Assembly (NCBI GenBank): GCA_031414595.1
Contig: JANNVX010000033.1
Coordinates: forward strand, 1 to 64,000
Origin: Deinococcales bacterium
GTDB lineage: Bacteria; Deinococcota; Deinococci; Deinococcales; JAAFIG01
Length of the DNA stretch: 64,000 nucleotides
Direction of reading: 5' to 3'
Shown: positions 1 through 64,000 of the stretch, in pieces
How positions within the stretch are numbered: the stretch's first letter is position 1
How the letters are laid out: each line of letters opens with the position of its first letter
The notes under the pieces: model-generated
What the model was told of the DNA's origin: nothing
The model's database searches: none
Seen by the model: only the letters and a program-made list of their open reading frames with translations
Made by a program: the position numbers and the translations under genes

Positions 1-139
1 AGCAGGACAGACACAGGGGTCTGTCCCTACAAAATCCATAAAAATACGTCAGGTAGGGGCGGACCCCCGTGTCCGCCCTGTGACCAATTGTCTGTTTTTG
101 GTCTATTTGAAATCAGGAAGTTATTCTTGGACAGTTCCC
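1..139. repeat. MITE/REPIN-like element, copy A (cut by window edge)
   Basis: Nearly identical to 43701-43839; contains GTAG-type REP hairpins (GTAGGGGCGGACCCCCGTGTCCGCCC) and the terminal repeat GGAAGTTATTCTTGGACAGTTCC. Confidence 0.85.
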
Positions 140-363
140 TAGTGAGAAGCGACAAGAACTTTTTCCCTAATTGTGGGAATTGCTTAAAGTTTTAGTAACC
201 TGCCTCTACCACCCGAGAATTTCACCATTCCCCTGCTGCAAAATCTTCCACTGCTCGAGCCAGTTCAGTCGTGGTCTGGGCTACGCTTAAACTTAATTCG
301 CAAATTTAAGTTAGGATATTTTATGACTTGGCAATTTGTAAATGTACAGGTGGGTAGTACATC

Positions 364-1260
364 ATGTTAAAACCCCTAGCTTGGGTGGTGCTTGCCCTAT
401 CCTTTGCTTTTCCATTTATTCCATTTGGAGACCGAACCGCATTTATTCAACAAATTTCGTTGTTTGTCTTGTCTGGGGCGGTGTTGGCGTTGTCTTGGGA
501 TTTTCTGGCGCGTACAGGGCAACTTTCCTTGGCTCATGCGGCTTTTTTTGGACTTGGTGCGTATACTTTTGCGCTGCTGGCAAACGCGGGTGTGCCTCAA
601 CCAATCGCTTTTTTGGCGGCTGGGGTGTTCTCGAGTCTAGCCAGTTTGTTGCTTGGTGCAGTCACCTTGCGTTTACACGGGATGTACTTTGCAATCGCCA
701 CGCTCAGTTTTGCCGAGGTGCTAAAAACAATCATCAATCAACTGCCGTTCACGGGCGGGGCGCAGGGTTTACTTGTACCCGCTTTGTTTGGCGGGCAGTT
801 TCTGACCTTGTATTTTGTGGGTTTAACCATGTTGCTGGTTCTGGTGGTATTTTCCGAGGTTTCTAAGCGTTCTAAACTTGGTTTTGCTGCCACAGCAATT
901 CGTCAAGGGGAACTGGTAGCTCGAGTGCTGGGGGTCAATGCCACCAAAGTCAAATTACAATCTTTTGTGATTTCAAGTTTTTTTGTCGGTTTGGTCGGGG
1001 CATATGCAGCCGGTAAAACCTTTTATATCACTCCACCCGAGGCGTTTAGTGCTTCGGTCAGCGTGACAGCCCTTGTGATGCCGATTTTTGGTGGTTTGTA
1101 CAGCACCGTTGGTCCGATTTTAGCGGCGGTGGTACTGCGGATTCTCGAGGAGTTGCTGCGTTTGGTTTTACCCCAAGGCTACTTAATTGGTTACGGGGTT
1201 ATTTTGGTGCTTTCGATTTTATTCTTACCCAAGGGATTACTGAGTTTATGGAAAAAATGA
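364..1260 (+). CDS. livM: Branched-chain amino acid ABC transporter permease
   Basis: Hydrophobic; GQLSLAHAAFFGLGAY and LRLHGMYFAIATL motifs; upstream of two ABC ATPases. Confidence 0.88.
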   Translation: MLKPLAWVVLALSFAFPFIPFGDRTAFIQQISLFVLSGAVLALSWDFLARTGQLSLAHAAFFGLGAYTFALLANAGVPQPIAFLAAGVFSSLASLLLGAVTLRLHGMYFAIATLSFAEVLKTIINQLPFTGGAQGLLVPALFGGQFLTLYFVGLTMLLVLVVFSEVSKRSKLGFAATAIRQGELVARVLGVNATKVKLQSFVISSFFVGLVGAYAAGKTFYITPPEAFSASVSVTALVMPIFGGLYSTVGPILAAVVLRILEELLRLVLPQGYLIGYGVILVLSILFLPKGLLSLWKK

Positions 1261-1979
1261 TTCTCAAAGCTGCCAACTTGTCTAAGCGCTTTGGTGGTCT
1301 GCAAGCGGTCAATGATGTTTCCTTAGAACTGTTTGAAAACGAGATTCTAGGGGTGATTGGACCAAATGGCGCGGGCAAAACCACATTCTTAAACTTATTG
1401 TCTGGGGTTTTTCTGCCCGACTCTGGAAGTCTGCACTTAGAAAACACCGATATTACCAAAGCTGTGCCAGAAATCAGGGCTAGACTGGGTTTAGGCAGGG
1501 CGTTTCAGATTGCCCAGCCTTTTCCAGAGATGACAGTCCTCGAGAATGTGGCGGTCGGTGCATTGTTTGCCGCCGATTTACCAATGAAAAAAGCCCTGGC
1601 TCGAGCCGAAGAAGTGCTTGAATTAACAGGTTTAAGTGCCAAACGCGATGTGGCTGCCCATAATTTAAGTTTACTCGAGGATAAGCGCCTTGAAATGGCT
1701 CGAGGGCTGGCAACCAATCCTAAGGTCTTACTGCTTGATGAGGTCATGGCGGGCTTGCGTCCATCTGAGGCGCAAGAAGCGGTTGAGGTGATTAAAGTGA
1801 TTCGTAGCCAAGGTATTGCCGTCTTGTTTATTGAGCATTTAATGCACGTCGTTAAAGTTTTGGCAGACCGAGTAATCGTGATGGATCACGGTGAAGTGCT
1901 GGCTTTTGGGACATACAGCGAAGTGACCAAGAATGCGGCGGTCATCGAAGCCTACTTGGGTTCTGAGGTAAACGCATGA
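1257..1979 (+). CDS. livG: Branched-chain amino acid ABC transporter ATP-binding protein
   Basis: KRFGGLQAV, Walker A GPNGAGKTT, LLLDE, C-terminal VIEAYLG; ATGA overlap with livM. Confidence 0.9.
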   Translation: MILKAANLSKRFGGLQAVNDVSLELFENEILGVIGPNGAGKTTFLNLLSGVFLPDSGSLHLENTDITKAVPEIRARLGLGRAFQIAQPFPEMTVLENVAVGALFAADLPMKKALARAEEVLELTGLSAKRDVAAHNLSLLEDKRLEMARGLATNPKVLLLDEVMAGLRPSEAQEAVEVIKVIRSQGIAVLFIEHLMHVVKVLADRVIVMDHGEVLAFGTYSEVTKNAAVIEAYLGSEVNA

Positions 1980-2692
1980 GTCTGGTGTTGCGCCTAAGCA
2001 ATTTGCAAGCCGCTTATGGCAAGGTGCAAGTGCTGTGGGGCATAGACTTACAAGTCGAAGATGGCGAATTTGTAACCGTGGTTGGCAGCAATGGGGCTGG
2101 CAAAACCACCATGCTTCGCACCATCTCGAGCCTCATCCAAGCCACGGGCGGCACAGTTGAACTCTTTGGGCAAGACATCACCAACGCCCCAAGCAGCCAA
2201 ATTGTTCGGGCTGGGCTGGCGCATGTTCCCGAAGGACGGCAGTTATTCCCGTTCATGAGCGTGGCTGATAACTTAGAGCTTGGGGCATCGGCAAAATCAA
2301 GTGCTTGGGCGGCTCGAGAATCCACCAGACGCGAAATGTACACTTTATTTCCACGCCTAGAAGAAAGAAAACCCCAATTGGCTGGAACATTATCCGGCGG
2401 AGAGCAACAAATGCTGGCAGTGGCACGGGCGCTGATGGCACTGCCTCGAGTGATGCTGGTGGACGAACCTTCGCTGGGGTTATCGCCCAAACTGACCCAG
2501 ATTGTTTTTGCTGCCCTTGAAGCCGTTTCAAAACGTGGTGTAGCCGTGCTGCTGGTCGAACAAAATGTCCGCCAGAGTTTACGTTTAGCCAATCGTGCTT
2601 ATGTCCTCGAGAATGGCAAAGTGACGCTCGAAGGGACTGGGGCAGCTTTACTCGAGGATGAACGGGTTAAAAAAGCGTACTTGGCGTTGTGA
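1976..2692 (+). CDS. livF: Branched-chain amino acid ABC transporter ATP-binding protein
   Basis: GSNGAGKTT, VPEGRQLF, LSGGEQQMLA, DEPSLGLSP. Confidence 0.92.
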   Translation: MSLVLRLSNLQAAYGKVQVLWGIDLQVEDGEFVTVVGSNGAGKTTMLRTISSLIQATGGTVELFGQDITNAPSSQIVRAGLAHVPEGRQLFPFMSVADNLELGASAKSSAWAARESTRREMYTLFPRLEERKPQLAGTLSGGEQQMLAVARALMALPRVMLVDEPSLGLSPKLTQIVFAALEAVSKRGVAVLLVEQNVRQSLRLANRAYVLENGKVTLEGTGAALLEDERVKKAYLAL

Positions 2693-2698
2693 GAAAGA

Positions 2699-2765
2699 GG
2701 CGAAAGGCGAAGGGCAAAGGGCGAAAGGCAAAAGGTTTTAAGCTCATAGCTCATAGCTCAAAGCT
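2699..2765. repeat. Composite heptamer tandem array (GGCRAAR)x5 + (AGCTCAT)x3
   Basis: Visible 7-nt periodicity between convergent livF and kinase genes. Confidence 0.8.
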
Positions 2766-3744: not shown

Positions 3745-3792
3745 ATTCTAAACCAAATTCTGGTTTTTTGTTGTCCAGAACCCACACCAGAT

Positions 3793-4770: not shown

Positions 4771-4849
4771 CGCTGTTAGCCTAACAAAAGCAGAGCAAGG
4801 AAAAAAAGGACTCGAGTTTAGTGCCTTGTCGGACAAGTCGGTAGACCGA

Positions 4850-6310: not shown

Positions 6311-6498
6311 GGGTAAAGCATAACTTACTTACTTGAGGGTCATTTAGCTTCTAGCGGCTGATTTTTAGCTGCTAGTTGGTACGTTCTGAACCCATTTCTC
6401 GAGAATTTCCAGTAGCCTTTTTTACCCATGCCAAGCGTAATACCCACCTTGGTTATAGACATGGTTAAAATCGGCAGGTTCAAGGGTCATGATAAAAA

Positions 6499-6849: not shown

Positions 6850-6942
6850 GCTTTATTGTACGCTGGTTTTGCCTTGCAAGTTTCTTTTGCTCCTGTTTTT
6901 TTTACGTTTGCCTGTTAGGATGCAAAGCATGAAGGTTTTACT

Positions 6943-7590: not shown

Positions 7591-7604
7591 TTTATTGGTA
7601 ATCC

Positions 7605-8177: not shown

Positions 8178-8218
8178 TTGTTGTTTTTTCCCACCTGTCA
8201 ATTTGTTACAGTGCGTTC

Positions 8219-9694
8219 ATGAACCCCCAGCCGAAAGTCATTACCTTAGAGCATGTCTCTTTGGATTTTAACGGGCGGCGTGTCCTCGAGAATGTCTCTT
8301 TATCGGTGGCAGAAGGCGAATTTATTGCTGTGCTTGGCTCGAGTGGTGGCGGTAAAAGTACCTTGTTGCGTTTAATTGCAGGTTTACTAAAAGGTACAGG
8401 TAAACTCGAGGTCACAGCCGCCACAGCCATGGTCTTTCAGGATTATCGTTTGCTGCCGTGGCGGACGGTGCGTCAGAATGTCTTGTTGCCGTCCGAACTT
8501 GGAGGGGCGGGCATGACCCCCGAAGAAGCCCTGACCTTGGTCGGAATGAGCAGTTTTGCTGCCCTCTATCCGCATCAGTTGTCTGGCGGAATGCGGGCGC
8601 GGGTGGCGATAGCTCGGGCTTTAGCCCAAGATGCACCGATTTTATTGATGGATGAACCTTTTGCGGCGCTTGATGCCTTGGTGCGTGAGCGTTTTAATTT
8701 AGAACTTAAAAAAATCCATGAAAAAACAGGTAAAACCATTTTATTTGTGACCCACAGCATCCGCGAAGCCGTCTACTTGGCGGATCGGGTGGTGGTGATT
8801 AAAAACGGACGGATAGAACTGATTCTGACGACCAAAGGGCAAGGCAGAATCACAGCTTTTACCGAACCGCTCGAGGCACAATTGCGTGGTTTACTCGGGG
8901 TGGCAGATTCTACCCACATCGAAGTGCCAATCCCAGCCTTACGTTTCCCGTGGGAGATTCTGGGTGTGTTGGGCATGATTGTGTTACTTTTACTGACTTG
9001 GAATTTCTTTGTGCCAGTCCCAACTCCGTTTACGCCAACACCAGGCTTGGTCTGGCGCACCATCTTTGAAAAGTCCGATGTGCTGCTGCCCGCCGCCCTC
9101 GAGACCTTAAGAATTACGGGCTTAGGCTTGTTGTGGTCGCTGGTTATTGGTATTGGCGCGGGTTACACCATGGGCAAACTGCGTATTCTCGAGCGGATAT
9201 TCTCGCCGTTTATTGTGGCGCTGCAAGCCATTCCCGTGATTATCATTGCGCCGATTCTAGTAACCCTGATTGGTTTTACCGATGCTTCAAGGGTCTTAAT
9301 TGCTACCCTAATCAGTTTATTTCCAATTCTAACCGCCACGATGGTGGGGGTGCGAGAAGTTGACCTTGTGTTCCGCGAGGTCTTCCAAACGATGCGTTCA
9401 AGTTTCTGGGGAGTTTTAAGTAAACTCGAATTCCCCGGGGCGCTGCCTGTGATGCTTGGCGGTCTTCGCAACACGGTTAGCCTTGCCTTAATCGGCACAG
9501 TTGTAGCTGAATTTACCTTCCCTAGCAGCAGTTCTGGACAAAATGGCTTAGGCGCTCTTGCCCAAAGCGCTCGGGTTTCTTTTAACAACGAATTTTCTTA
9601 TGCGGCGGTTTTTATGCTTGTTTTTATTGGTTGTTTTTTGTATTTGCTGGTTTTTCTGCTCGAGACATGGGTGCTAAGCTACCGAAAAAAATAA
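8219..9694 (+). CDS. Fused NitT/TauT-family ABC ATPase + permease, probable riboflavin importer component
   Basis: N-terminal GSSGGGKST, LSGGMRARV, MDEPF; C-terminal TM permease region; next to FMN riboswitch and substrate-binding protein. Confidence 0.82.
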   Translation: MNPQPKVITLEHVSLDFNGRRVLENVSLSVAEGEFIAVLGSSGGGKSTLLRLIAGLLKGTGKLEVTAATAMVFQDYRLLPWRTVRQNVLLPSELGGAGMTPEEALTLVGMSSFAALYPHQLSGGMRARVAIARALAQDAPILLMDEPFAALDALVRERFNLELKKIHEKTGKTILFVTHSIREAVYLADRVVVIKNGRIELILTTKGQGRITAFTEPLEAQLRGLLGVADSTHIEVPIPALRFPWEILGVLGMIVLLLLTWNFFVPVPTPFTPTPGLVWRTIFEKSDVLLPAALETLRITGLGLLWSLVIGIGAGYTMGKLRILERIFSPFIVALQAIPVIIIAPILVTLIGFTDASRVLIATLISLFPILTATMVGVREVDLVFREVFQTMRSSFWGVLSKLEFPGALPVMLGGLRNTVSLALIGTVVAEFTFPSSSSGQNGLGALAQSARVSFNNEFSYAAVFMLVFIGCFLYLLVFLLETWVLSYRKK

Positions 9695-9774
9695 AACTGT
9701 TGAGGCGTTCCTCATGAAGTCACAGTTTGTTTCTCACCGTTAAAAAGTTAAACTCTTTTCCGAGCTTAGGCTCA

Positions 9775-9934
9775 ACCTTTCAGGGCGAGGTGCAATTCCT
9801 CACCGGCGGTGAAGACGCTGTTTATTGGCGTATTAGTCCGCGAGCTTCGAGAAATTTTTAACTCGAGGTTGAGGCAGTAAAAGCTGCCACCGACAGTATT
9901 TGCTTTTAGCATCAGTCTGGATGAAAGAAGGGGT
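9775..9934 (+). promoter_or_regulatory. FMN riboswitch (RFN element)
   Basis: AGGGCGAGGTGCAATTCCTCACCGGCGGT ... AGTCCGCGAGC ... ACCGACAGT ... AGTCTGGATGAAAGAAG consensus blocks. Confidence 0.93.
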
Positions 9935-12055: not shown

Positions 12056-12084
12056 GAAGGGACTTGTTTGTAGCAAGTCCCTTC
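12056..12084 (+). terminator. Terminator hairpin after rplS
   Basis: GAAGGGACTTG-loop-CAAGTCCCTTC followed by T-rich tract. Confidence 0.7.
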
Positions 12085-12093
12085 ATTTATTCT

Positions 12094-12510
12094 ATGGACA
12101 TCAAACAGCTTTTAGAACAGCAACTCGAGCGTGAACATCAACGCCATGCAAGCCCAACTCGAGCCAGCGAAGGGCTGTACGCGCTTTGTATGGACAATCA
12201 GTTCGCACCTAAAATGGTATTGCGTGAACTCGAGACGATCAGTATTTACCCAGAAACGATTGCGGCAACCCAAAGACTTTTTTTGGAAAACGAAAATCTT
12301 GAAGTCCTGACCAGAGAACGCTTACTAGCAAGGCGCAGTTTCCCTCGAGCCGATGCGCTCAGCCTTGCTCGAGCTTTGGATACCGAGGGCTTACGGCGCG
12401 TAACAGGCAAGGATTTACAACTTGGACTGCGGGCAGCTTCGGTCTTAGAAGCCAAACCGATGATTGAAGCCTGGAATGCTTTATCGGTCTATGAGCAGAC
12501 TCGAGGCTAA
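12094..12510 (+). CDS. Hypothetical protein
   Basis: 138-aa ORF from ATG filling the intergenic gap, composition like neighbours. Confidence 0.65.
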   Translation: MDIKQLLEQQLEREHQRHASPTRASEGLYALCMDNQFAPKMVLRELETISIYPETIAATQRLFLENENLEVLTRERLLARRSFPRADALSLARALDTEGLRRVTGKDLQLGLRAASVLEAKPMIEAWNALSVYEQTRG

Positions 12511-17189: not shown

Positions 17190-17426
17190 ATGGACTGGAC
17201 AACCAAAGAAGGCGAATTTAGCATTTGGTGCGAACTAGAAACCCCAGATACTTTGCTTTGGCTCGAGTGGAACGAACGGGTTTTTGCTTACCGTTGTGGC
17301 GTTTCTAAAAATGGAGCAGCCGGACAATCGCACTTAGGCTACGCCGATTCGCTCGAAGATGCCCAGAGTATTGCTTTTGAATTACATCTGCAAAGCCCAC
17401 AAGCGCACCCGAGCCGCGACCCGTAA
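17190..17426 (+). CDS. Hypothetical protein
   Basis: 78-aa ATG ORF; 3' end overlaps recQ end. Confidence 0.5.
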   Translation: MDWTTKEGEFSIWCELETPDTLLWLEWNERVFAYRCGVSKNGAAGQSHLGYADSLEDAQSIAFELHLQSPQAHPSRDP

Positions 17427-19931
17427 AAAACCAGCCTCAGCACTCGAGGCGAGCGTTTCGAGTTGCGTAATGTTCTTTGAAACCCGCAACACCGCCAAAC
17501 GCACCCGAGGGCGAGAATCTTCAAGCATAAAATCCATCTCAAAGTCTGGGTCAAGCACTGCCAAGGCTGATACCGCCGCCGCCGCTACCGATTCTCTTGG
17601 GTCGTCTAAAAATGGTCGCAAGACGGCAAACTGCCCACCGAGTTTAGCCAGAGTTTCCAGCGCTCGAGGTAACTGCGCTTCGGGTAGGGCTGCCAAGTGT
17701 GCCTCGAGCAACGCAGGAGTAAACACTATCCCTTGAGCCGCCGCCTCGAGCAATTCGGCTGCATTTTTGAAGGAATGTGCCATGTTTTTTTGTAGGGGAG
17801 ATGTCCGAAGGACAGAGGGGTCTCGCCCTGTGACTGATAATTTTGTTTGATTTTCTGATTTGGTTACGGATGTTTTAGGTGGGGAAATAACATTTTGGGG
17901 CAAGGGCGAGGCATGCCTCGCCCCTACGGTTTTTTGATTGGGTTGATGATGTCTCGAGACAATTTCTAATAAGACTTGACCGTACTTCTCGAGCATGACT
18001 TTACCAATGCCTTTGATGCTGGCTAGGTCGGCTAAACTTTTTGGCATGGTTTGGGCAATACTTTCTAGTACGGCATTACTAGCGATTAAAAAAGCACTGA
18101 TTCCCGAGGCTCGAGCAATTTCACGTCGCCAAGTCCAGAGGTCTTGTACCAGTGGTTCACTGGGTTCGGGTTTTTTTGTGGTGTCTCGAGTATCTGTTCG
18201 AGCCGAAGAAAAGACCAAATCTTCTTCTTTAGGAATTGCCTTTTTGACTTCTCGAGGTTCTGTTTTAACAGCGCTGACATTGCCATGCAGTATTCGCAAT
18301 TCGCCTTTTTCAATCATCTCGAGCATCACATCACGAATAACTTGCCGCCCAAAGCGTTTAAGATTGCCGTGCATCGGGTGCTTGTGTAGACCTTTACTTT
18401 CTATTGCCGAACTGCTCGAGCCGACCAACAGCGCGGTCACGTCGCGTGGTTCTAAGCTGTGGCTCGAGAGGAGTTTTTGCAGCCCAGCCTTAATAGATTC
18501 TTTTTGTGTCGGACTGGCGCGTTTTTGGCTTGCCACCACTGGGCGGATACTCAGGTCGCCAATGCTCGAGTCGCAAGCATCACAGCGTTTACAGGGCGGA
18601 ATTCGTTCACCAAAATGCCCAATTAAAAAAGCCCTGCGGCAGGCTCTGGTTTGGGCATAGCCGACCACTTTTTCTAAAGCCGTATCCTCGAATTTGCGCC
18701 TTCGGTACATGCTGCTAAAATCCACGGTCTTACGTGCATCCACCACCTGAAAAGCCCCACCAATAGCTTCTAGGTTGCCATTCTCGAGCAATAACTTGAC
18801 CGCCACGTTTATCGGGGTGGTGTCAAAACTCATTCGGGCAGCCACATCCGAAGCGCTGCCGGGCGTATTCTCGAGATTCTTAAGCACCGCTTGGACAACT
18901 TTTTCAGGTGGATAATTTTTCTCCATGATGCTTTTGCGGGTCATCAGGTCTTGTGGGGCATACAGCAGTGCCGCATGAGCAGGTTCACCGTCGCGTCCCG
19001 CCCGTCCAGCTTCTTGGTAATAGGCTTCGATGGTGCTGGGCAGCGAATAATGCACCACAAGGCGCACATCGGGTTTATCCACCCCCATGCCAAAGGCAAT
19101 CGTGGCACAAATGCAGTCAAGCTCACCACTTAAAAAAGCGTCTTGAACATCAGCACGGTCTTTGTCGGGCATCCCCGCGTGATATGCCCTTGTGCCGAGA
19201 ATATCGGCGATTTCCTCGGTGTTTTTACGGCTTAAACAATAAACAATACAAGCCCCCGGATGTTTAGCCCGCAGTGCATGAAGCGCCTCGAGTTTGGTGG
19301 CTTTGGTCGGGGTGTAATGGCTGCTAAAGGTCAGGTTCTGACGGTCAAAACTGCCAACTTGGATAAGCGGTTCGCGCAGCAGCACCCGAGCGATTTCTTC
19401 ACGGACTTTTGGTGTGGCGGTGGCAGTTAAAGCCAAACGCGGCGCACGTATACCTTCGAGTAAACTGCCTAGACTTAAATAATCTGGGCGAAAATCATGC
19501 CCCCACTGGCTAACACAATGGGCTTCGTCCACCACCACAAGACTGGCTCGCTCGAGTAAGCCACGGCTGGCACGGGCGCGTTCTGGGGCGATATAAACCA
19601 GTTTGTACTCGCCGTTACGAATTCCAGCAAAACGCTGGCTGGCTTGGAGTTCGGTCATGCCACTGGCTAAATAGGTGGCTGGAATACCTTTTTTAGTCAG
19701 GGCATCCACTTGGTCTTTCATCAGGGCAATTAACGGACTAATCACCACGGTTGTTCCCTCGAGAAGTGAGGCAGGTAATTGATAGGTTAAAGACTTGCCA
19801 CCGCCAGTGGGCAGTACGGTTAGGGCATCACGTTTTTCTAAAACTGCTTCTATCGTCTCGAGTTGCAGCGTGCGAAAAGACGTGTGTCCAAAGCGTTTTA
19901 GGGCAGTAGAAATAGCGGCACTCGAAATCAC
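17382..19931 (-). CDS. recQ: RecQ-family ATP-dependent DNA helicase with RQC, HRDC and C-terminal HEAT-like repeats
   Basis: PTGGGKS, DEAHCVSQWGHDFRPDY, AFGMGVDKPDVR, QEAGRAGRDG, Zn-binding CRR..C..CDAC, HRDC (LWTWRREIAR...GIGK). Confidence 0.93.
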   Translation of the reverse strand: MISSAAISTALKRFGHTSFRTLQLETIEAVLEKRDALTVLPTGGGKSLTYQLPASLLEGTTVVISPLIALMKDQVDALTKKGIPATYLASGMTELQASQRFAGIRNGEYKLVYIAPERARASRGLLERASLVVVDEAHCVSQWGHDFRPDYLSLGSLLEGIRAPRLALTATATPKVREEIARVLLREPLIQVGSFDRQNLTFSSHYTPTKATKLEALHALRAKHPGACIVYCLSRKNTEEIADILGTRAYHAGMPDKDRADVQDAFLSGELDCICATIAFGMGVDKPDVRLVVHYSLPSTIEAYYQEAGRAGRDGEPAHAALLYAPQDLMTRKSIMEKNYPPEKVVQAVLKNLENTPGSASDVAARMSFDTTPINVAVKLLLENGNLEAIGGAFQVVDARKTVDFSSMYRRRKFEDTALEKVVGYAQTRACRRAFLIGHFGERIPPCKRCDACDSSIGDLSIRPVVASQKRASPTQKESIKAGLQKLLSSHSLEPRDVTALLVGSSSSAIESKGLHKHPMHGNLKRFGRQVIRDVMLEMIEKGELRILHGNVSAVKTEPREVKKAIPKEEDLVFSSARTDTRDTTKKPEPSEPLVQDLWTWRREIARASGISAFLIASNAVLESIAQTMPKSLADLASIKGIGKVMLEKYGQVLLEIVSRHHQPNQKTVGARHASPLPQNVISPPKTSVTKSENQTKLSVTGRDPSVLRTSPLQKNMAHSFKNAAELLEAAAQGIVFTPALLEAHLAALPEAQLPRALETLAKLGGQFAVLRPFLDDPRESVAAAAVSALAVLDPDFEMDFMLEDSRPRVRLAVLRVSKNITQLETLASSAEAGFLRVAARVRLWALQM
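17792..17927. repeat. Pair of inverted GTAG-type REP hairpins inside recQ
   Basis: GTAGGGGAGA...TCTCGCCCTGTGAC and GGGCGAGGCATGCCTCGCCCCTAC; shares CCCTGTGAC with the MITE copies. Confidence 0.75.
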
Positions 19932-21325: not shown

Positions 21326-21676
21326 TTAAGCGGCTGCGGCGACAACGGCGGCTTTGGAACGGTTAATGGCTTTAGCCAAACGGCTTTTTTTACGTGCGGC
21401 GGTGCGTTTGTGCATTACACTGCCCTTGGCAGCTTTGTCAATTAAACTTTCGGCGCGTTGGGTCAGGGTAACAGCTTCGGCTGCACCTTCGGTATTGGCG
21501 ACCAAGGCTTTTTTTACAAAAGTCTTGATTGTGCTTCTGACCGCACGGTTGGCGGTGCGGCGTTTAAGGCTTTGACGGTGACGCTTTTCTTGTGCCATAC
21601 CACGACGCTTAGATTTAACAACCTTGCGTTCCTTACGGGTCTTGGGCTTTTTGACTGCTGGTGCTGCTCCTGCCAT
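21326..21676 (-). CDS. rpsT: 30S ribosomal protein S20 with basic N-terminal extension
   Basis: [40 protein letters not shown] before ATG 21676. Confidence 0.95.
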
Positions 21677-21843
21677 AATTACTCCTTCGCGCTTAAAAAA
21701 GCGGCGGACAAAAGATTGCCCGAAGCGAAATTTACCAAGTCTTAGCAAATCCGCACCCGAGGTGACTCGAGTACCACAAACTGGGTTTGACCAATTTGGG
21801 CTTGGGGAGCTTAGCATAAGAATGAAGACTTGTATACTGACTT

Positions 21844-22293
21844 ATGAATTACTGGCTCTTAAAAACCGAACCTGATGTTTTTTCCTACACCGACTTAGAA
21901 CGCCTTGGCTCGAGTCCGTGGGACGGAATACGCAATTACCAAGCCCGTAATCACTTACGAAGTATGAAATTAAATGATTTAGCCCTGATTTACCACAGCA
22001 GCACCAATCCACTCGGCATTGCTGGAATTGCCAGAATCATAGAAACTGCCCACCCAGACGAACTTCAATTTGACCCAGAAAGCCAGTATTTTGACCCCAA
22101 AAGCCCAAAAGAAAACCCACGTTGGAGTCAAGTTATTCTCGAGCCAGTGCGCCAACTGCCCTTTCTCGAGTTAAGTGTTTTACGTGCCGAACCAAAACTC
22201 GAAGGAATGCTGATTCTACGAAAAGGCAATAGGTTATCAGTCACACCAGTCGAAAAAAAGCATTACCAGCATATTTTAGCAATGGCAAAATAA
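21844..22293 (+). CDS. EVE domain protein
   Basis: YWLLKTEP, WDGIRNYQARN, RLSVTPV. Confidence 0.92.
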   Translation: MNYWLLKTEPDVFSYTDLERLGSSPWDGIRNYQARNHLRSMKLNDLALIYHSSTNPLGIAGIARIIETAHPDELQFDPESQYFDPKSPKENPRWSQVILEPVRQLPFLELSVLRAEPKLEGMLILRKGNRLSVTPVEKKHYQHILAMAK

Positions 22294-43643: not shown

Positions 43644-43646
43644 CCA

Positions 43647-43839
43647 AGGATTTGTCCGTAAATAACTTCCCTATTTGGAAATGATGAAACATTGTTTCCT
43701 AGCAGGACAGACACAGGGGTCTGTCCCTACAAAATCCATAAAAATACGTTAGGTAGGGGCGGACCCCCGTGTCCGCCCTGTGACCAATTGTCTGTTTTTG
43801 GTCTATTTGAAATCAGGAAGTTATTCTTGGACAGTTCCT
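43647..43839. repeat. MITE/REPIN-like element, copy B (complete, 193 bp)
   Basis: Imperfect 24-bp terminal inverted repeats (AGGATTTGTCCGTAAATAACTTCC / GGAAGTTATTCTTGGACAGTTCCT) enclosing two GTAG REP hairpins. Confidence 0.85.
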
Positions 43840-43897
43840 AAGAAGCGGTCAAACTGTCACTTTAGCCGTCCCTGCTCCTTCTTAACTCTTAAACTTC

Positions 43898-52037: not shown

Positions 52038-52298
52038 ATGAGCCTCGTAGAAATGAAAACTGCTGCACTGCAATTACCATTTGCCGAACGAGGTGAATTG
52101 GCAAAAGCACTGCTTTTAAGTATGGAGCAACCCTCAGAAGCCGAACTCGAGCGAGCCTTAGAAGCCGCTCAGTACGCCCATTTGGACGAAGCGACCCGAA
52201 ATGCAATTCTTAGTGCGCCGATAACCACTTGGGAAGAGATGATGCAAGATACCGACCCTGACGCACCAGAATTTGACATTCCAGAGGATAAGCAATGA
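52038..52298 (+). CDS. Putative antitoxin (addiction-module-like N-terminus)
   Basis: ALQLPFAERGELAKALLLS, acidic tail; ATGA overlap with PIN gene. Confidence 0.7.
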   Translation: MSLVEMKTAALQLPFAERGELAKALLLSMEQPSEAELERALEAAQYAHLDEATRNAILSAPITTWEEMMQDTDPDAPEFDIPEDKQ

Positions 52299-52693
52299 CT
52301 CCACAAGCTGTTTTAGTGGATACCAATGTGATGAGTTACCTGTTCCGAAAAACACCAAAAGCCGAACCGTTCCGCCTTTTACTTGAGGGTAGACGAAAAA
52401 TTATTTCTTTTCAAACTCGAGCCGAATTGATGCTTTGGTCAGCGTACTGGTCAAAGTCCAATCAAGCTAAGTTAGAACGCTTTCTTGTCAATCAATTTGG
52501 TTATTTACCGCACACTGAAGCTGTAAACGTAGCATGGGTAGCAGCAATGAAGAGCGCTAAAAAGAATGGCTACCCAATTTCTGCGGCGGATGCTTGGATA
52601 GCTGCGACTGCTTTAAGCTCTGGGTTATTGCTACTGACGGCTGATAAAAACGATTTTCTGGGCGTGGAAGGTTTGAAACTGTTAAGCGTGTAA
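52295..52693 (+). CDS. vapC: PIN-domain toxin
   Basis: LVDTNV, T.AEL, ADAWIAATA, LLTAD..DF. Confidence 0.88.
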   Translation: MTPQAVLVDTNVMSYLFRKTPKAEPFRLLLEGRRKIISFQTRAELMLWSAYWSKSNQAKLERFLVNQFGYLPHTEAVNVAWVAAMKSAKKNGYPISAADAWIAATALSSGLLLLTADKNDFLGVEGLKLLSV

Positions 52694-52761
52694 TTTGGTT
52701 TTCCGTACTCTAGCGGGAAGTAAGATAAAGTTTTAGATTTTTTTATAAAAAGGAGGGTTTT

Positions 52762-54054
52762 TTGTCTAAAAGCAAAAATTCTGATATGGTCGAAAATAGA
52801 ATACAAAACACGGCTTTATCACAACTCAATTGGCAGAACAAACTATCAGGAAAACCCGAATTGGGTATAATCGAATACCCACTCTTTTGTGATGCTCAAA
52901 TTACAGGAGATTTTGTCAGTGGATTAGAACCATATAGCTTCCTAAATACTGTACCTATTACTGACGGAACTAATGCAGTGGTTGCTCCTTTTGTTTTACG
53001 AATTGCAGTCTACTTAGAAGAACACAAACCAAATTTTAGTAAAACTGATGAATCCCTTTACCACGGTGGAACTTTAGTTGATGAAATAGCTGCTCTAACT
53101 TCTGTTGCACTTGGGGTTCGCATTCGTGCTGGTGGGGAGACACGGCGGTTTGAGCTAGGAAAAGACCCATATGGTCGACCTAGTGCGTGGCATGATATTC
53201 CAAGACCTACTGTGCAGATTAAAAGAAATCGACCAATACTACCTTCGGTTTTGGGAGAACATTCAATGAGTAAATTAGAAGTATTGAATTTAGTACCTAA
53301 AATTGACACAAAGCGATACATTAGTTTGATTCGTGCTTGCAGATTATACCAAGATGCACTTTGGATTGTTGAATCTGATCCAAATCTTGCATGGCTTATG
53401 CTCGTTTCGGCTCTTGAAACCGCAGCCAACGACTTTATGGCATCAGACAATGACTTAACTGAACAATTAAAACTTTCATTACCTAGACTTGCCTCACTTC
53501 TCGAGAAGTTTGGTGGTAATAGTCTTGTTGAAGCAGTAGCAGACGAGATTGCTCATACCTTAAAAGCAACTAAAAAATTCATTGATTTTACCATGCACTT
53601 TCTTCCTAATGAACCAACGGAACGACCTGAAACTGATTGGCTTCGGCTTGATTGGTCAAAGTTGAAGAAAATCTTGAGCGTGGTTTATGAGTATCGCTCA
53701 CGTGCTTTACACACTGGACTACCATTTCCTGCTCCAATGCTCCATTCACCGTTTTATTTGCACCCCTCGAAAATACCATCAGAAGTACCCCTGATGGGAC
53801 TAGCAGCACATTCATTGGGAGGTACTTGGATGCCAAAAGATGTACCAATAAACCTGCATTTTTTTCACTATATTACACGCGGTGTACTGCTTAGGTGGTG
53901 GCAAGAAGAGCTTGCCACCACTGAAAGTATTCAACAAACAACCAATCCTCGACTCGAGTACCCTGTCATGACCAGCTTAGGAATTGCTGAAAGTGATTGT
54001 GACGCTGCAACCAACGAATGGGTTAGCACCAGTAAAATTAGAGTTCTGCCGTAA
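52762..54054 (+). CDS. Hypothetical protein with putative C-terminal HEPN (ApeA-like) domain
   Basis: AT-richer than flanks; LVSALE helix and YEYRSRALHTG RxxxxH motif; SD AGGAGG before TTG. Confidence 0.6.
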   Translation: MSKSKNSDMVENRIQNTALSQLNWQNKLSGKPELGIIEYPLFCDAQITGDFVSGLEPYSFLNTVPITDGTNAVVAPFVLRIAVYLEEHKPNFSKTDESLYHGGTLVDEIAALTSVALGVRIRAGGETRRFELGKDPYGRPSAWHDIPRPTVQIKRNRPILPSVLGEHSMSKLEVLNLVPKIDTKRYISLIRACRLYQDALWIVESDPNLAWLMLVSALETAANDFMASDNDLTEQLKLSLPRLASLLEKFGGNSLVEAVADEIAHTLKATKKFIDFTMHFLPNEPTERPETDWLRLDWSKLKKILSVVYEYRSRALHTGLPFPAPMLHSPFYLHPSKIPSEVPLMGLAAHSLGGTWMPKDVPINLHFFHYITRGVLLRWWQEELATTESIQQTTNPRLEYPVMTSLGIAESDCDAATNEWVSTSKIRVLP

Positions 54055-54094
54055 TTTTTCTGCTCGAGCAATCTGCTTTGGCTTAAATTCGTTT

Positions 54095-54514
54095 TTATTT
54101 TCTTAAATCAAGCTGAGTCGCGCTTGAACCAAACTGTAATCCTTGTACCCTCGAGAAGTGCGTGTCAAAAGTAAAAAGTGGGTTCTGATACTGGATTGCC
54201 ATGGCTGCAATCCAAAGGTCGTTGGTTGGTACTATTTGCCCTGCTTGCCCTAGTGCTGCATTGATGCTCGAGTAAGTAAAAGCGGTTTCTTGGTCTGGGA
54301 AAATCAGTTCTACTCGAGGTAAAGCTAAGAATTCCTCGAGCTTAACTAGGTTTTGAGTGTACCGATTACCGCCCCGAAAGCCACTGAGTAATTCTGCCAT
54401 GACGATGATTGGCATGGCGATTCTTGGTGATAAACGCAGCACTTCGATACAATCGGGTTGACCTCGAAACAAGTTGCTGTACGCATTGGTGTCAAAGATT
54501 ACTCGTGTGTTCAT
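54095..54514 (-). CDS. vapC: PIN-domain toxin
   Basis: FDTNAY, VMAELL, PTNDLWIAA, TFDTHF. Confidence 0.9.
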   Translation of the reverse strand: MNTRVIFDTNAYSNLFRGQPDCIEVLRLSPRIAMPIIVMAELLSGFRGGNRYTQNLVKLEEFLALPRVELIFPDQETAFTYSSINAALGQAGQIVPTNDLWIAAMAIQYQNPLFTFDTHFSRVQGLQFGSSATQLDLRK

Positions 54515-54741: not shown

Positions 54742-54773
54742 AGGTCAATTGTACAAGATTTTCTTGGCTTAAT

Positions 54774-54840: not shown

Positions 54841-54858
54841 TCTAAGCGGAGGTCTTTT

Positions 54859-58804: not shown

Positions 58805-58812
58805 GGAGATTT

Positions 58813-59439: not shown

Positions 59440-59458
59440 TTTTATGTGCGTCCCATTT

Positions 59459-60658: not shown

Positions 60659-60679
60659 AAGGTGTTTCTCCGAAGAATT

Positions 60680-61897: not shown

Positions 61898-61904
61898 GGC
61901 ATCC

Positions 61905-62654
61905 TTAGGGTTGTTTCAAAAATCGTTCGGTGAAGACGCTATCAGCAATTTCAACATCCATTTCCATAGCCGTTTGCTTAAAGGTGCTTTTTGAGCCTTG
62001 CGAGACGGTTTCCATCGAAAGGGTTTTAATCAGGTTGTAGCCTTTAATCACCCCAAACTCGAGGGCGCGAAGGGTCTTAAAAACCTTATCGCCTTTGTAG
62101 TAGTCGGTTTTTAAGGTGTTCAGGGTTTTCGCCTCTATTTCGTAAATAATTTTGTCGTAATTGCTGTTCTTTTTGGCTTTGGCTTCAATGATGTATTTGC
62201 CGTTGTCGCTCGAGGTCAGGCTGTAATTAAAGTCCTTAGTGTCGGAGCGCCCAAGGTCGCAGTAACTAAAATCCGAACCAAAAAACGCCCCATCGCAATC
62301 GCTCGAGTCTGAGCCACCAGTCGCCAGTCGGCGGGTGCGCCCAAGGGCTGGAAGGTAGAGCAGGGTTTCGGTCAGACCATTTTTCTTGATACTGAGGATT
62401 CCACTGCCTTTAATATCGGCTGGGGCAAGAAATTTGACAAGACTGCGGTCATTGCTTGCCCATGATTTCATGGTGCGCGATAAGGTCTGCCCGTTTTTGC
62501 TAATCTCGAGGTTGATTGTGCCAATACTTGACTTTGGGGTTGGGCGGTCAAGGGTGGCTTGCATCACTTCTAAACCAGTTTTATACATTTGGTTCTGAGC
62601 GAGGGTCAGCGCTCCAAGTGCAACGACGATGATACTGAATATTATTTTTTTCAT
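61905..62654 (-). CDS. Outer-membrane lipoprotein-sorting (LolA-like) protein
   Basis: FLAPADIKG, LYLPALGRTRR, FFGSDFSY.D. Confidence 0.82.
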   Translation of the reverse strand: MKKIIFSIIVVALGALTLAQNQMYKTGLEVMQATLDRPTPKSSIGTINLEISKNGQTLSRTMKSWASNDRSLVKFLAPADIKGSGILSIKKNGLTETLLYLPALGRTRRLATGGSDSSDCDGAFFGSDFSYCDLGRSDTKDFNYSLTSSDNGKYIIEAKAKKNSNYDKIIYEIEAKTLNTLKTDYYKGDKVFKTLRALEFGVIKGYNLIKTLSMETVSQGSKSTFKQTAMEMDVEIADSVFTERFLKQP

Positions 62655-64000
62655 AAGGTTGCTCCTTCATTGGTACTCGAGGTCAGGACAGGTTTTTTAA
62701 CTGGGTCACGCAAAAATTGTAAACACATGGCAGGCAGTAAAGTCAGGCTCGAGAGACCAACCGCCAGTACCGTAAAAACCATCATTTGTCCAAGGCTGGC
62801 AACGGGTTGCAACTGGCTAAAAGACAGGGCTGCAAACCCAGCCCCAAGGGTTAAAGCCGTAAACAAGATGCTGCGTCCACTGGTGACAATTGTGTTCTCG
62901 AGGGCTTGTTCTGGGGTCTGACCAAGGCGGCGTTCCTCGAGAAAGCGCACCGTCAGATGAATCGCATAATCGCCCACGCCAATTGCCAGAGCGCCAAGCA
63001 GCATCGTCGAGATGTCCAAGTCAATGCCGAGCCAACCCAATAAGCCGTACTGCAAAATCACGGTCATGATTAAACTCGAGATGGTGACCAGTGCGGCTTT
63101 GAAGCTGCGAACAAAACTATCAATAATCACCACCAAAACAATCGCCAGCGACAAACTAATAACAAAGTCGTGAATCATCACATCCTCGAGTGCCAAGCCG
63201 CTCAGGGCTTGTCCGCCGACCTTGACAGTCGCAACACCCTTAAAAACTTCTTCAGAAAGGGCTTTTATTTGATTGTAATAGCCTCTGGTGTTGCTGGTAT
63301 TTTCAAGTGGAATGCCAACCTGAATGATTGTTTGTTGCTGATTTAACGACAATTGCTGAGTAATCGCACTGGTGTCGCTGCTAGACTGGTAAATCAGGAG
63401 TTCCTGAGCCACTTTCTCGCGGCTGGCTGGAATTTGGCGCTGTCCCGTAAATAAGTGATTTAAGGTCATGACGGTATCGCTGATGCTGATGGTGTTGCCG
63501 ACTCCTGAAATTTCGGCTTTGGCTCGAGTCGTGAAGGTCTGGATGGTGTTCAGGATTTTTGGCTCGAGAATATCGCCCTCAATAAGCACAGAGATGCTGC
63601 TTGAACCACCAAAGAGTTTATCCACTTTGGCAATGTTTTTTACGGTTTGTGAGTTCTTAGGAAAAAAACTCAGATACGAGGTATTGGGTTGAATTCGGGT
63701 TGCCCCAATCAAACCAAAAATCATTAAACCAACTGCCGCCATCATCACGATTGTGCGGTGTGTGACGACATATCCTGCCAAGGCTTTAAGAATACCAGTA
63801 AGAGCGCCGCCTTGTGGTTTAACCCGCACTTTTGGAACTGGCAAAACGTTTATCAGGGCTGGCAACAAAAAAACCGCTCCAGACAACGCGCCAATAATCC
63901 CAAAAATAATCAGCGTACCAAGGTCGCGCAGCGTACCAATATCGGATAGCCACAAAGTCATCATTGAGGCAATAATTGCAATCGCACTAATCACCACCCC
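62651..64000 (-). CDS. RND/MMPL-family membrane transporter (5' part outside window)
   Basis: Multiple TM helices, AIGVGDYAIH, GRSILFTALT...GF. Confidence 0.85.
   Translation of the reverse strand, partial: GVVISAIAIIASMMTLWLSDIGTLRDLGTLIIFGIIGALSGAVFLLPALINVLPVPKVRVKPQGGALTGILKALAGYVVTHRTIVMMAAVGLMIFGLIGATRIQPNTSYLSFFPKNSQTVKNIAKVDKLFGGSSSISVLIEGDILEPKILNTIQTFTTRAKAEISGVGNTISISDTVMTLNHLFTGQRQIPASREKVAQELLIYQSSSDTSAITQQLSLNQQQTIIQVGIPLENTSNTRGYYNQIKALSEEVFKGVATVKVGGQALSGLALEDVMIHDFVISLSLAIVLVVIIDSFVRSFKAALVTISSLIMTVILQYGLLGWLGIDLDISTMLLGALAIGVGDYAIHLTVRFLEERRLGQTPEQALENTIVTSGRSILFTALTLGAGFAALSFSQLQPVASLGQMMVFTVLAVGLSSLTLLPAMCLQFLRDPVKKPVLTSSTNEGATL

Follow-up and report, generated by a model that had tools for sequence, protein, structure and literature searches.

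Abundance of CTCGAG in the window and in the genome

The question raised by this locus is why a single six-base palindrome, CTCGAG, recurs throughout a stretch of bacterial DNA, and what process creates or keeps it there. The window, that is, the whole analysed stretch of 64,000 nucleotides (1..64000), contains 341 copies of the exact palindrome (5.3 per kb), compared with a mean of 7.8 (s.d. 2.9, maximum 15) in 100 dinucleotide-preserving shuffles, none of which reached 341. A preliminary description of this DNA had counted 13 sites in the first 2.7 kb and estimated a roughly 20-fold excess; the count is exact (254..2656, with starts at 254, 630, 920, 1144, 1539, 1600, 1674, 1699, 2125, 2313, 2445, 2606 and 2651), and the excess is stronger than estimated. 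The genome to which the window belongs (G000; 4,488,778 bases in 120 contigs, the largest of 305 kb) carries 23,235 copies, one per 193 bases or 5.2 per kb, which places CTCGAG first among all 4,096 hexamers.

The genome-wide ratio of observed to expected counts (O/E) is 24, 43.6, 18, 3.8 and 1.16 under Markov models of order 0 to 4, respectively. The near-unity value of the order-4 (pentamer) model does not refute the excess, because the model is circular: the hexamer itself accounts for approximately 90% of the CTCGA pentamers and for 69% of the TCGA tetramers in the genome. With the motif-masked genome as background, O/E rises to 67–79, and the ratio of the motif to its neighbours is shifted 30–110-fold relative to each of the nine classes of one-off neighbour, all six positions being biased to this extent. 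The Markov-corrected count proposed in the preliminary description thus leaves, as in HIP-type words, an exact palindrome many-fold above its composition-corrected expectation (43.6-fold for dinucleotides, 67–79-fold after masking). The bias acts on the whole word, at each of its positions, and is therefore not the product of T:G-specific repair.

The flanks of the sites are near background composition, so the word is exactly 6 bp long; flank divergence between genomes is constant with distance from the sites, and the constraint is confined to the six bases. No dispersed repeat carries the word, no 12-mer exceeding 125 occurrences in G000. Spacing between sites is near exponential, with a coefficient of variation of 0.99, and counts at 500 bp are slightly more even than Poisson (variance/mean 0.79–0.89). 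Such close-to-random spacing gives little sign of selection for even coverage. Density is flat over genes and their flanks, except for a bump of approximately 35% at stop codons.

Reading frames, codons and proteins

Based on 4,020 crude ORF calls in G000, 12,344, 4,085 and 4,352 sites fall in the three reading frames and 2,454 lie outside ORFs, giving densities of 5.13 per kb in coding and 5.37 per kb in non-coding DNA. Shuffling of synonymous codons within genes leaves O/E values of 9.2, 9.7 and 16.2 in the three frames. Enrichment is thus spread over all frames and between genes, as is typical of HIP1, and the earlier assertion that the word is not a protein motif stands.

In G000 the codon pair CTC-GAG writes 12,374 of the 20,606 Leu-Glu dipeptides (60%); outside this context, Leu is written CTC in 7.9% of cases and Glu is written GAG in 20%. 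No dipeptide of the genome is more over-represented than Leu-Glu (2.22-fold). The bias overrides codon usage and has changed amino acids too. With increasing codon adaptation, the density of the word drops from 6.2 to 4.1 per kb, and the share of Leu-Glu written as CTCGAG stays near 0.6. Genes with less than 36% GC contain 0.78 sites per kb, compared with 6.5 per kb in genes above 52% GC. The only limits on the word are protein constraint and the short residence time of foreign DNA. These observations define a weak but pervasive fixation bias for the exact word, acting everywhere in resident DNA, in three frames and in non-coding sequence.

Genes of the window illustrate this range. The densest is a 148-residue ORF without a Pfam family (12064..12510, plus strand; six sites, 13.4 per kb), and the RecQ-family helicase gene (17382..19931, minus strand; 19 sites, 7.5 per kb) is an example of a native gene rich in the word. 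The gene rplS, encoding ribosomal protein L19 (11609..12043, plus strand; Pfam Ribosomal_L19, E = 1.6e-45), contains no site. The ORF containing rpsT (21326..21817, minus strand) has its S20 domain in the C-terminal part, at residues 76–152 (Pfam Ribosomal_S20p, E = 3.2e-20); its one site, at 21766–21771, lies upstream of the domain, which contains none. The absence of sites from these two ribosomal genes had been remarked on before and is confirmed, with little weight, as only approximately 2.2 (rplS) and 1.4 (rpsT) would be expected. An AT-rich (40.8% GC) gene of 430 codons, flanked by VapC/PIN toxin genes (52762..54054, plus strand), carries two sites (1.5 per kb), as originally counted; its product matched no known family, and the gene is probably foreign DNA yet to acquire the word.

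Retention, gain and loss among relatives

The sites of G000 are kept at 92% in G005, 87% in G001 and 76% in G003, compared with 76.5%, 61.5% and 31.6%, respectively, for other hexamers. Within conserved Leu-Glu dipeptides, 88% of CTCGAG sites are kept, against 44% expected from synonymous divergence. Conservation beyond that of the surrounding sequence, as seen in HIP1-type words, is thus present.

Substitutions into and out of the word, polarised against relatives as the preliminary description had proposed, run in opposite directions in different lineages. Gains and losses show a net loss in G000 (4:21), G005 (5:17) and G004 (12:42 and 5:32), and a net gain in G003 (26:6, 48:24, 22:9 and 21:6); in G007 the excess of gains is non-significant. 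The strength of the bias therefore differs by lineage, with erosion of the word in G000, G004 and G005, growth in G003 and approximate balance in G001, G002 and G006. Relative to other hexamers, its loss rate is 0.52–0.77 in G000, G005 and G004, and 0.16–0.32 in G003, G006 and G007. Equilibrium GC is 0.38–0.47 in the losers and 0.49–0.57 in G003 and G007; across seven related lineages and approximately 50 kb of alignment, erosion goes with AT-ward and growth with GC-ward substitution drift. Given its net erosion in G000, the word can be dispensed with, at least in the short term. The gains in G003 and G007 arose mostly from sequences several steps away from CTCGAG; they changed the amino acid in 13 of 21, 30 of 50 and 19 of 27 cases.

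Distribution across Deinococcota

The family carrying the hyper-abundance belongs to the uncultured Deinococcota. All 18 of its other genomes contain 4.3–6.8 sites per kb, and the five genera in this range have four-fold sites near saturation, with GC contents from 47% to 59%. In the single-contig genome G013, O/E in the three frames is 3.2, 27 and 9.9. Weaker, frame-independent enrichment is found in four further genera (g13, g14, g15 and g27), and strength is graded over 150 further genomes of the phylum, in which one family avoids the word and one genus is neutral. Sharing across a lineage, with exceptions, is also a property of HIP1. In the high-GC relatives G025, a genome of intermediate enrichment, and G030, CTCGAG is the top hexamer in the samples taken, with a frame-0 excess of just 1.1–2.6-fold after synonymous shuffling. 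No published report of CTCGAG hyper-abundance was found in the literature.

Methyltransferases, repair and uptake genes

Adenine methylation (m6A) of CTCGAG has been recorded in three cultured Deinococcota, at 94.6% of sites in Marinithermus hydrothermalis, 94.1% in Meiothermus chliarophilus and 99.5% in Meiothermus ruber (Table S3 of Blow et al. 2016, PMC4752239), and that table lists no cognate restriction enzyme for their methyltransferases. The same paper describes orphan CTCGAG methyltransferases in Nocardia, with clusters of sites adjoining dnaA.

A search for an orphan CTCGAG or TCGA methyltransferase, suggested at the outset, turned up no family-wide gene. G025 has a gene of TaqI-type methyltransferase architecture amid housekeeping genes, without an adjoining nuclease; G000 has no orthologue of it, the best match being 25% identical and limited to the catalytic domain. 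Across 19 family genomes, none of the four methyltransferase classes profiled follows the distribution of the word: TaqI_C-type enzymes were found in 6, N6_N4 enzymes in 16, C5 enzymes in 17 and N6_Mtase matches, heterogeneous in score and length, in 17. G013 has no TaqI_C or N6_N4 match, and G002 (82% complete) has none in any of the four classes. G000 encodes four strong HsdM-like proteins, which are assigned to Type I systems because each gene adjoins an HsdS-like gene.

No Vsr nickase was found in G000 by a search that was positive in 3 of 14 named control genomes, and the deamination-type (transition) neighbours of CTCGAG are in 1.35–2.3-fold excess, not depleted. Together with the bias at all six positions, this disfavours mismatch-type-specific (VSP-type) repair. 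ComEC is intact in 18 of the 19 family genomes; DprA and a ComEA-type protein are present in all five genomes tested, and a secretin in four of them. Such competence genes are common among bacteria at large and occur in lineages losing CTCGAG as well as in those gaining it.

Comparison with known iterated words

The highly iterated palindrome HIP1 (GCGATCGC) of cyanobacteria, which is accompanied by alternate HIPs (Elhai 2015, PMC4390886; Xu, Lawrence and Durand 2018, PMC5861425), is described in the latter source as enriched 15–300-fold over composition-corrected expectation and quasi-periodic at 10–90 kb, with arguments for selection and a nucleoid role. Methylated HIP1 is reported to raise transformation up to >100-fold (Kamoku and Nielsen 2024 preprint), and its abundance to correlate with pilus and competence genes (Rodriguez-Cruz et al. 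2026). HIP1 and CTCGAG are alike in being exact palindromes tens to hundreds of times above expectation that are spread over every frame and intergenic DNA, are retained among related genomes and are common to a whole lineage; for both, orphan methyltransferases recognising the word are known in relatives. CTCGAG differs in being shorter (6 versus 8 bp), several-fold denser (one per 150–230 bp) and located in another phylum, and also in lacking a family-conserved methyltransferase, in being graded across its phylum and in eroding in some lineages. It is not HIP1 itself or a variant based on the HIP1 core CGATCG, which is almost absent from G000 (three copies). The HIP1-like reading of the preliminary description is partly supported: the analogy holds for each feature tested, from the exact hyper-abundant palindrome in all frames and between genes to its retention, its scarcity in foreign DNA and its lineage-wide occurrence.

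The DNA uptake sequences of Neisseriaceae (DUS) and Pasteurellaceae (USS) are also short words enriched genome-wide, in genic and intergenic DNA, at some cost to proteins, and are explained by biased uptake and recombination, a drive without per-site benefit. This drive model fits the uniform, whole-word and lineage-variable bias for CTCGAG. DUS and USS are, however, non-palindromic words of 9–12 bp that occur approximately once per kb and are often paired in terminators, whereas CTCGAG is palindromic, exactly 6 bp long and present at 5.2 per kb. We know of no uptake specificity in Deinococcus or Thermus.

In Escherichia coli, VSP repair together with Dcm leaves CCWGG mildly enriched and CTWGG depleted. 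This is likewise a site-directed, methyltransferase-tied process that shifts word frequencies genome-wide, but the present effect is approximately two orders of magnitude larger, extends over all six positions and comes with an excess of deamination neighbours in a genome without a detected Vsr. The orphan methyltransferases of Marinithermus, Meiothermus (both of the same phylum) and Nocardia recognise the same word, CTCGAG; genome-wide hyper-abundance is absent from the available part of that account (Blow et al. 2016, PMC4752239), and the G025-type enzyme lacks an orthologue in G000.

Candidate mechanisms

The reading that we favour, tentatively and at somewhat below even chances, is that CTCGAG belongs with the highly iterated palindromes of the HIP1 kind, as a methyl-marked tag that may be kept by a recombination- or transformation-linked fixation bias. 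The word would be a methylated mark, as suggested by the adenine methylation, with no restriction partner listed, in cultured Deinococcota. By analogy with the recent work on HIP1, the mark would tag kin DNA and raise its odds of uptake or recombination in natural transformation; alleles with the word would then replace alleles without it. Such replacement would amount to a drive that reinforces itself, as is accepted for DNA uptake sequences. A bolder version, which we regard as rather unlikely in full, is that the methyl-marked word would be a self-propagating kin tag that, by raising the uptake or recombination of DNA bearing it, drove itself to one copy per 150–230 bases throughout a Deinococcota family and rewrote part of the proteome (Leu-Glu 2.2-fold), with the drive switching up and down among lineages, so that growth and erosion are directly observable, and the word recruited as the codon-made commonest hexamer of a high-GC ancestor.

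The strongest competitor, itself unlikely, is selection on a chromosomal role in which CTCGAG is read in methylated or unmethylated form, for example in organising the nucleoid, controlling replication or telling strands apart during repair, with a small fitness value per site and no transformation-linked drive. Retention beyond background and the slightly more even than Poisson distribution at 500 bp are consistent with such a function, as are the nucleoid role and selection argued for HIP1 (Xu et al. 2018, PMC5861425) and the dnaA-adjoining clusters of Nocardia (Blow et al. 2016, PMC4752239). Against it, density is flat over genes and flanks apart from the stop-codon bump, some 23,000 sites are far above the needs of any known structural system, and three lineages are losing the word with no obvious effect.

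Sequence-directed repair or gene conversion within the cell, restoring or creating the whole word in mismatched DNA so that its abundance is a functionless by-product, is improbable. It would account for a uniform density independent of frame and feature, for constraint limited to the six bases, for the amelioration of foreign DNA towards the word and for a strength that varies by lineage, as expected of one enzyme coming and going. Yet G000 yielded no Vsr-type nickase, the excess of deamination neighbours is the opposite of the E. coli CCWGG/CTWGG pattern, and the gains in G003 and G007 start mostly several steps from the word, more than half of them altering an amino acid. To our knowledge, moreover, no repair system can correct the full set of 18 one-off variants that a hexamer has. 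The preliminary description offered several mechanisms without preferring any; the results speak against a repair process specific to one mismatch type, and do not discriminate between a tag for uptake or recombination, a different methylation-read function and a nucleoid-protein site.

The word could also be a relic of a high-GC ancestor that preferred the codons CTC and GAG, in which CTCGAG was already the commonest hexamer, the sites decaying slowly after GC fell. Its top rank and modest frame-0 excess in G025 and G030 agree with this, as does the net loss together with AT-ward drift in G000, G005 and G004. However, within the family, enrichment in the other two frames and in non-coding DNA equals that in frame 0 (frame values of 3.2, 27 and 9.9 in G013 and of 9.2, 9.7 and 16.2 in G000), sites of these classes are few in the high-GC relatives, G003 shows a net gain, and high density persists in five genera with four-fold sites near saturation. 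As a general explanation the relic is contradicted and very improbable; it may still account for the initial choice of the word. That the excess is an artefact, whether of composition (base, codon or dicodon) or of a dispersed repeat containing the word, is refuted, since the order-4 O/E of 1.16 that would speak for it is circular, the masked background and the synonymous shuffle leave 67–79-fold and 9–16-fold (per frame) enrichment, coding and non-coding densities are equal, and no 12-mer is sufficiently frequent.

Bearing on HIP1 and on work with these genomes

For three decades HIP1 has stayed unexplained, and work on it has been confined to a single phylum. CTCGAG is an independent and partly tractable counterpart, a different word in a different phylum, with a strength that spans avoidance, neutrality, an intermediate 2–3 per kb and 5–7 per kb. 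Lineages are caught gaining and losing it, and published methylomes of cultured relatives show m6A on the same word, which moves a descriptive puzzle to comparative and experimental ground, where gene content can be set against strength and fixation bias estimated per lineage. If the kin-tag reading is true, HIP1 and CTCGAG would be two independent inventions of one principle, and bench tests of that principle would become feasible through the weaker form carried by cultured Meiothermus-type genera. The word also shows how far a DNA-level bias can reach in reshaping proteins. On the practical side, its excess bears on XhoI digestion, cloning, k-mer binning and the detection of horizontal transfer in these genomes.

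Abundance and exactness of CTCGAG

The palindrome CTCGAG occurs 341 times in the window, against a mean of 7.8 in dinucleotide-preserving shuffles, none of 100 of which reached that number; the 13 copies that the preliminary description had counted in the first 2.7 kb proved exact. The source genome as a whole (G000; a 4.49-Mb assembly of 120 contigs, 47.2% GC, in which the window is bases 1–64000 of contig C33) contains 23,235 copies, one per 193 bases, and in it CTCGAG outnumbers every other hexamer. The ratio of observed to expected counts (O/E) is 24, 43.6, 18 and 3.8 under Markov models of orders 0, 1, 2 and 3, respectively, and 1.16 at order 4. The preliminary description had named a ratio near 1 after pentamer correction as grounds for abandoning the claim, and formally this is what order 4 gives, but the model is circular: the hexamer accounts for about 90% of CTCGA pentamers and 69% of TCGA tetramers, and thus carries its own pentamers and is predicted from itself. 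The order-4 correction was therefore dropped; masking the word before the background is estimated gives an O/E of 67–79.

The ten positions on either side of the word have approximately background composition, so that the word is exactly six bases long, and its one-mismatch neighbours are present in 173–1,368 copies each, compared with 23,235 for CTCGAG. Spacing between copies is approximately exponential (coefficient of variation 0.99), with counts in 500-base windows slightly more even than Poisson (variance/mean 0.79–0.89). No 12-mer exceeds 125 copies in the genome, so CTCGAG is not carried by a repeat.

Pairs at a spacing of 6, which would make the reversed word GAGCTC, are absent from the genome, and pairs at a spacing of 7 are enriched about two- to three-fold (101 pairs, every context unique). 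The same 4.5 Mb contain almost no copies of most other 6-bp palindromes and words with GGCC, with GGGCCC at 0 copies, TGCGCA at 2, GGCGCC, CGCGCG and CGATCG at 3 each, and GAGCTC and GTGCAC at 6 each. A repeat of about 140–200 bp, with copies 97–100% identical, lies at window positions 1–146 and 43641–43845, the latter, internal copy containing no CTCGAG. It recurs at the ends of some 30 contigs and in the relative G001, and is probably a MITE or an insertion-sequence end that breaks the assembly.

A bias on the whole word

The nine classes of sequence one change away from CTCGAG are not depleted in the source genome (11,992 observed, 9,000–9,800 expected), and the transition neighbours are in 1.35–2.3-fold excess, which is what decay of a large CTCGAG pool should produce. 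The motif-to-neighbour ratio is shifted 30–110-fold with respect to each neighbour class, from which we calculate a scaled fixation bias of about 3.4–4.7 at every position. Divergence at flanking third-codon positions shows no trend with distance from conserved sites, on which ground patch repair or recombination initiation at the sites was rejected, and Vsr was not found in the genome. It follows that the bias favours the word as a whole, extends no further than its six bases and is not T:G-specific repair.

Reading frames, proteins and genes with few sites

In a set of 4,020 crude open reading frame (ORF) calls (the longest ORFs that do not overlap, covering 90% of the genome), CTCGAG occurs 12,344, 4,085 and 4,352 times in the three frames, with 2,454 copies outside ORFs; its density is 5.13 per kb in coding and 5.37 per kb in non-coding DNA. 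Shuffling synonymous codons within each gene leaves a 9.2-, 9.7- and 16.2-fold excess by frame. Enrichment limited to one frame, the other finding that was to count against the claim, is thus not what the genome holds, the excess being present in all three frames and in non-coding DNA. The codon pair CTC-GAG writes 12,374 of the 20,606 Leu-Glu dipeptides (60%); outside the word, 7.9% of leucines are encoded by CTC and 20% of glutamates by GAG. No other dipeptide of the proteome exceeds its expected frequency as strongly as Leu-Glu does (2.22-fold), and the DNA word has thus altered protein sequences. Along genes and across their 300-base flanks the density of sites is even, except that it is about 35% higher near stop codons.

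Codon adaptation was approximated by a proxy that was derived from the ribosomal-protein operon and excluded Leu, Glu, Arg and Ser. From its lowest to its highest decile, CTCGAG density falls from 6.2 to 4.1 per kb (rho −0.24, p about 1e-30), and both the number of Leu-Glu dipeptides and the frame-1 and frame-2 sites decrease. The share of Leu-Glu written as CTCGAG stays at about 0.6 in every decile, which rules out a rare-codon cost that keeps the word out of highly expressed genes. Density also depends on base composition, being 0.78 per kb in genes below 36% GC and 6.5 per kb in genes above 52% GC. Taken together with the decile pattern and its constant Leu-Glu share, this means that genes gather CTCGAG the longer they have resided in the genome, and that the limit is set by constraint on the protein, not by codon preference. 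The ribosomal-protein operon carries 35 copies in 11 kb (3.2 per kb).

Genes of at least 900 bp that lack the word number 29, against 4.7 expected. The 20 longest are of two kinds: low-GC genes of defence or polysaccharide type, and five genes of normal GC (0.47–0.51) for solute-binding proteins of ABC transporters, with 5–7 copies expected in each. These five lie on contigs C15 (16597–17895), C88 (209398–210516 and 1497–2558), C55 (10896–11954) and C70 (24538–25566). The window itself contains a small low-GC islet (52295–54514), composed of a gene for a VapC-like PIN toxin (52295–52693), an AT-rich gene of 430 amino acids belonging to no known family (52762–54054) and, on the opposite strand, a second PIN-domain gene (54095–54514).

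Distribution across Deinococcota

Compared with solved ribosomes in the PDB, ribosomal protein L2 of the source genome scores best (490–496 bits) with entries that we take to be those of Deinococcus radiodurans, followed by Thermus thermophilus (467–474 bits) and the next entry at 376. RecQ was uninformative as a taxonomic probe among named genomes, its best matches being 33–52% identical and scattered over many phyla.

All 18 other genomes of the family, in five genera, contain 4.3–6.8 CTCGAG per kb, densities that use rounded sizes of mostly incomplete metagenome-assembled genomes. Density stays similar although GC in the family spans 47% (source genome) to 59% (a sample of G013). Outside the family, 150 further high-quality genomes of the phylum were surveyed. 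A second family of the same order (f3, 82 genomes) avoids the word, at 0.01–0.46 per kb, which may reflect restriction systems there that cut CTCGAG; its members have 26 to 2,175 copies in genomes of 1.9–6.1 Mb, and the one sampled is about 71% GC. Genus g9 (27 genomes) has about 0.6–1.6 per kb, similar to the reversed control word, and one of its genomes lacks the signature, with O/E after synonymous shuffling of 0.7, 0 and 1.7 by frame. Genera g13, g14, g15 and g27 reach 1.4–3.4 per kb. In samples of intermediate genomes, O/E after the same shuffle is 2.1–3.8, 6.4–22 and 3.7–4.8 by frame, and 45–77% of Leu-Glu is written as CTCGAG; in G025, G021 and G019 the excess is mainly in frame 0 and largely accounted for by codon usage. 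These densities, with the weaker signature of the intermediates, indicate that the trait is graded across the phylum and that the family of the source genome is its extreme.

Retention, gain and loss among relatives

The alignment to the window comprised about 50 kb of orthologous DNA from G005 (94.5% identical), G001 (90.7%) and G003 (79.4%); G004, G007, G006 and G002 contributed less. The CTCGAG sites of the source genome are kept in 92%, 87% and 76% of cases in G005, G001 and G003, and other hexamers in 76.5%, 61.5% and 31.6%. At conserved Leu-Glu dipeptides, 88% of sites are kept in G003, compared with 44% expected from synonymous divergence.

If the process were stationary, each taxon of a triplet should have as many sites of its own (present-only) as sites that it alone lacks (missing-only), an expectation that is violated in several lineages of the window alignments. 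Present-only and missing-only sites number 4 and 21 in the source genome (p = 9e-4), 5 and 17 in G005, and 12:42 and 5:32 in G004, amounting to net loss; in G003 they number 26:6, 48:24, 22:9 and 21:6, a net gain. G001, G006 and G002 are balanced, and the gain excess of G007 (32:18, 29:20, 19:9) is non-significant. These counts come from blastn alignments and parsimony on one 64-kb window in few, related lineages, and may include transient changes on short terminal branches. Relative to other hexamers, the word is lost at a rate of 0.69 in the source genome, 0.52 in G005 and 0.50–0.77 in G004, and of 0.16–0.32 in G003, 0.29 in G007 and 0.21 in G006, a measure that is sensitive to branch length, G004 and G003 having branches of similar length.

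Losses are mainly single C-to-T or G-to-A transitions, and the gains in G003 and G007 occur at fast-evolving positions, more than half of them altering the amino acid. Outside the word, the three losing lineages drift towards AT (equilibrium GC 0.44, 0.47 and 0.38–0.41), and G003 (0.49–0.54) and G007 (0.57) drift towards GC or stay level. Genome-wide densities agree with the pattern of gain and loss, at 4.8–5.2 per kb in the source genome, G005, G004 and G001 and 5.9–6.4 per kb in G003, G006 and G007.

Methyltransferases and restriction

The source genome is rich in DNA methyltransferase genes (at least 24). Across the 19 genomes of the family, the TaqI_C class is found in 6, N6_N4 in 16, C5 in 17 and N6_Mtase, with heterogeneous scores and lengths, in 17, so that none of these four classes includes a family-wide gene. 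The orphan CTCGAG or TCGA methyltransferase that the preliminary description had proposed to look for did not emerge as a family-wide gene; none of the candidates tested tracks the word across the family.

One TaqI_C-type enzyme of the source genome, P0001 (663 amino acids, HTH-Eco57I-TaqI_C), forms a Type II restriction-modification pair with a 246-amino-acid nuclease on contig C4 (28798–31538; locus L114, 1501–4232), and was rejected as the methyltransferase of the word with orthologues in 2 of the 18 other genomes (G001 and G003). The nuclease had no Pfam or NCBIfam match, was classed by PADLOC only as a Type II restriction endonuclease and bears the public name ‘hypothetical’; it belongs to an unnamed, very widespread family of 3,996 relatives that share about 70% identity across phyla. 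A plasmid collection yielded no match to the nuclease and no informative name for the methyltransferase. The pair has 39–41% GC, yet 7.5–8 CTCGAG per kb, about three times other genes of that GC. A Type IIG enzyme of 1,108 amino acids was likewise set aside, with orthologues in 3 of 18 genomes (G003, G005 and G016), as were the HsdM-like genes, all four strong ones adjoining HsdS-like genes and thus being Type I. The TaqI endonuclease family had no match in the source genome, nor did that of XhoI, the model of which also matched none of the control genomes, making the XhoI negative a weak one.

CTCGAG is actively m6A-methylated elsewhere, at 94.6% of sites in Marinithermus hydrothermalis, 94.1% in Meiothermus chliarophilus and 99.5% in Meiothermus ruber, and Table S3 lists no cognate restriction enzyme for these three (Blow et al. 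2016, PMC4752239). Mrub_2385 and its counterparts are the orphan CTCGAG methyltransferases of these species. In G025, a complete genome of intermediate enrichment, an enzyme of TaqI architecture (about 410 amino acids) is flanked by release-factor and aminotransferase genes with no nuclease adjacent; its public relatives, 51–57% identical, come from several phyla. This orphan type was rejected for the source genome, where the best match is 25% identical and confined to the catalytic domain; the TaqI_C scan would have detected an orthologue elsewhere in the family. In the source genome the locus has no synteny: the counterparts of its flanking genes are on different contigs, C109 and C106.

Next to rpsT, the window (21844–22293) encodes a 149-amino-acid protein that consists of a stand-alone EVE (PUA-like) domain. 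Proteins with this fold have been suggested to read modified bases.

Candidate explanations

No published report of CTCGAG hyper-abundance was found in the full-text literature outside subscription journals, and Elhai 2015 (PMC4390886) contained no match to phrases on other phyla or VSP repair. For the cyanobacterial palindrome HIP1, a preprint reports that its methylated form raises natural transformation up to >100-fold, and proposes that it affects uptake and acts on recombination in a Chi-like manner (Kamoku and Nielsen 2024); in a further study, HIP1 abundance shows a correlation with pilus and competence genes but no significant one with the methyltransferases of HIP1 (Rodriguez-Cruz et al. 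2026).

Our leading, still tentative, reading is that CTCGAG may be a kin tag that is marked by methylation and kept up by a drive linked to transformation or recombination. ComEC is present in 18 of the 19 family genomes, and DprA, a ComEA-type protein and a secretin are encoded in the family as well; these are widespread genes, and their content showed no difference between losing and gaining lineages. A scan of viral contigs for clustered CTCGAG was uninformative about phages of the family, the matches listed being mostly generic high-GC phage contigs in which GAGCTC was also common. Maintenance by selection, with CTCGAG serving some function of the chromosome, ranks second, as a distinctly less probable account than the kin tag, and a repair or conversion bias acting on the whole word ranks third and appears improbable. 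That the word is a decaying relic of high-GC codon usage, ranked fourth, is very hard to credit; such usage may nonetheless explain its recruitment, because CTCGAG is already the commonest hexamer in samples of two high-GC relatives.
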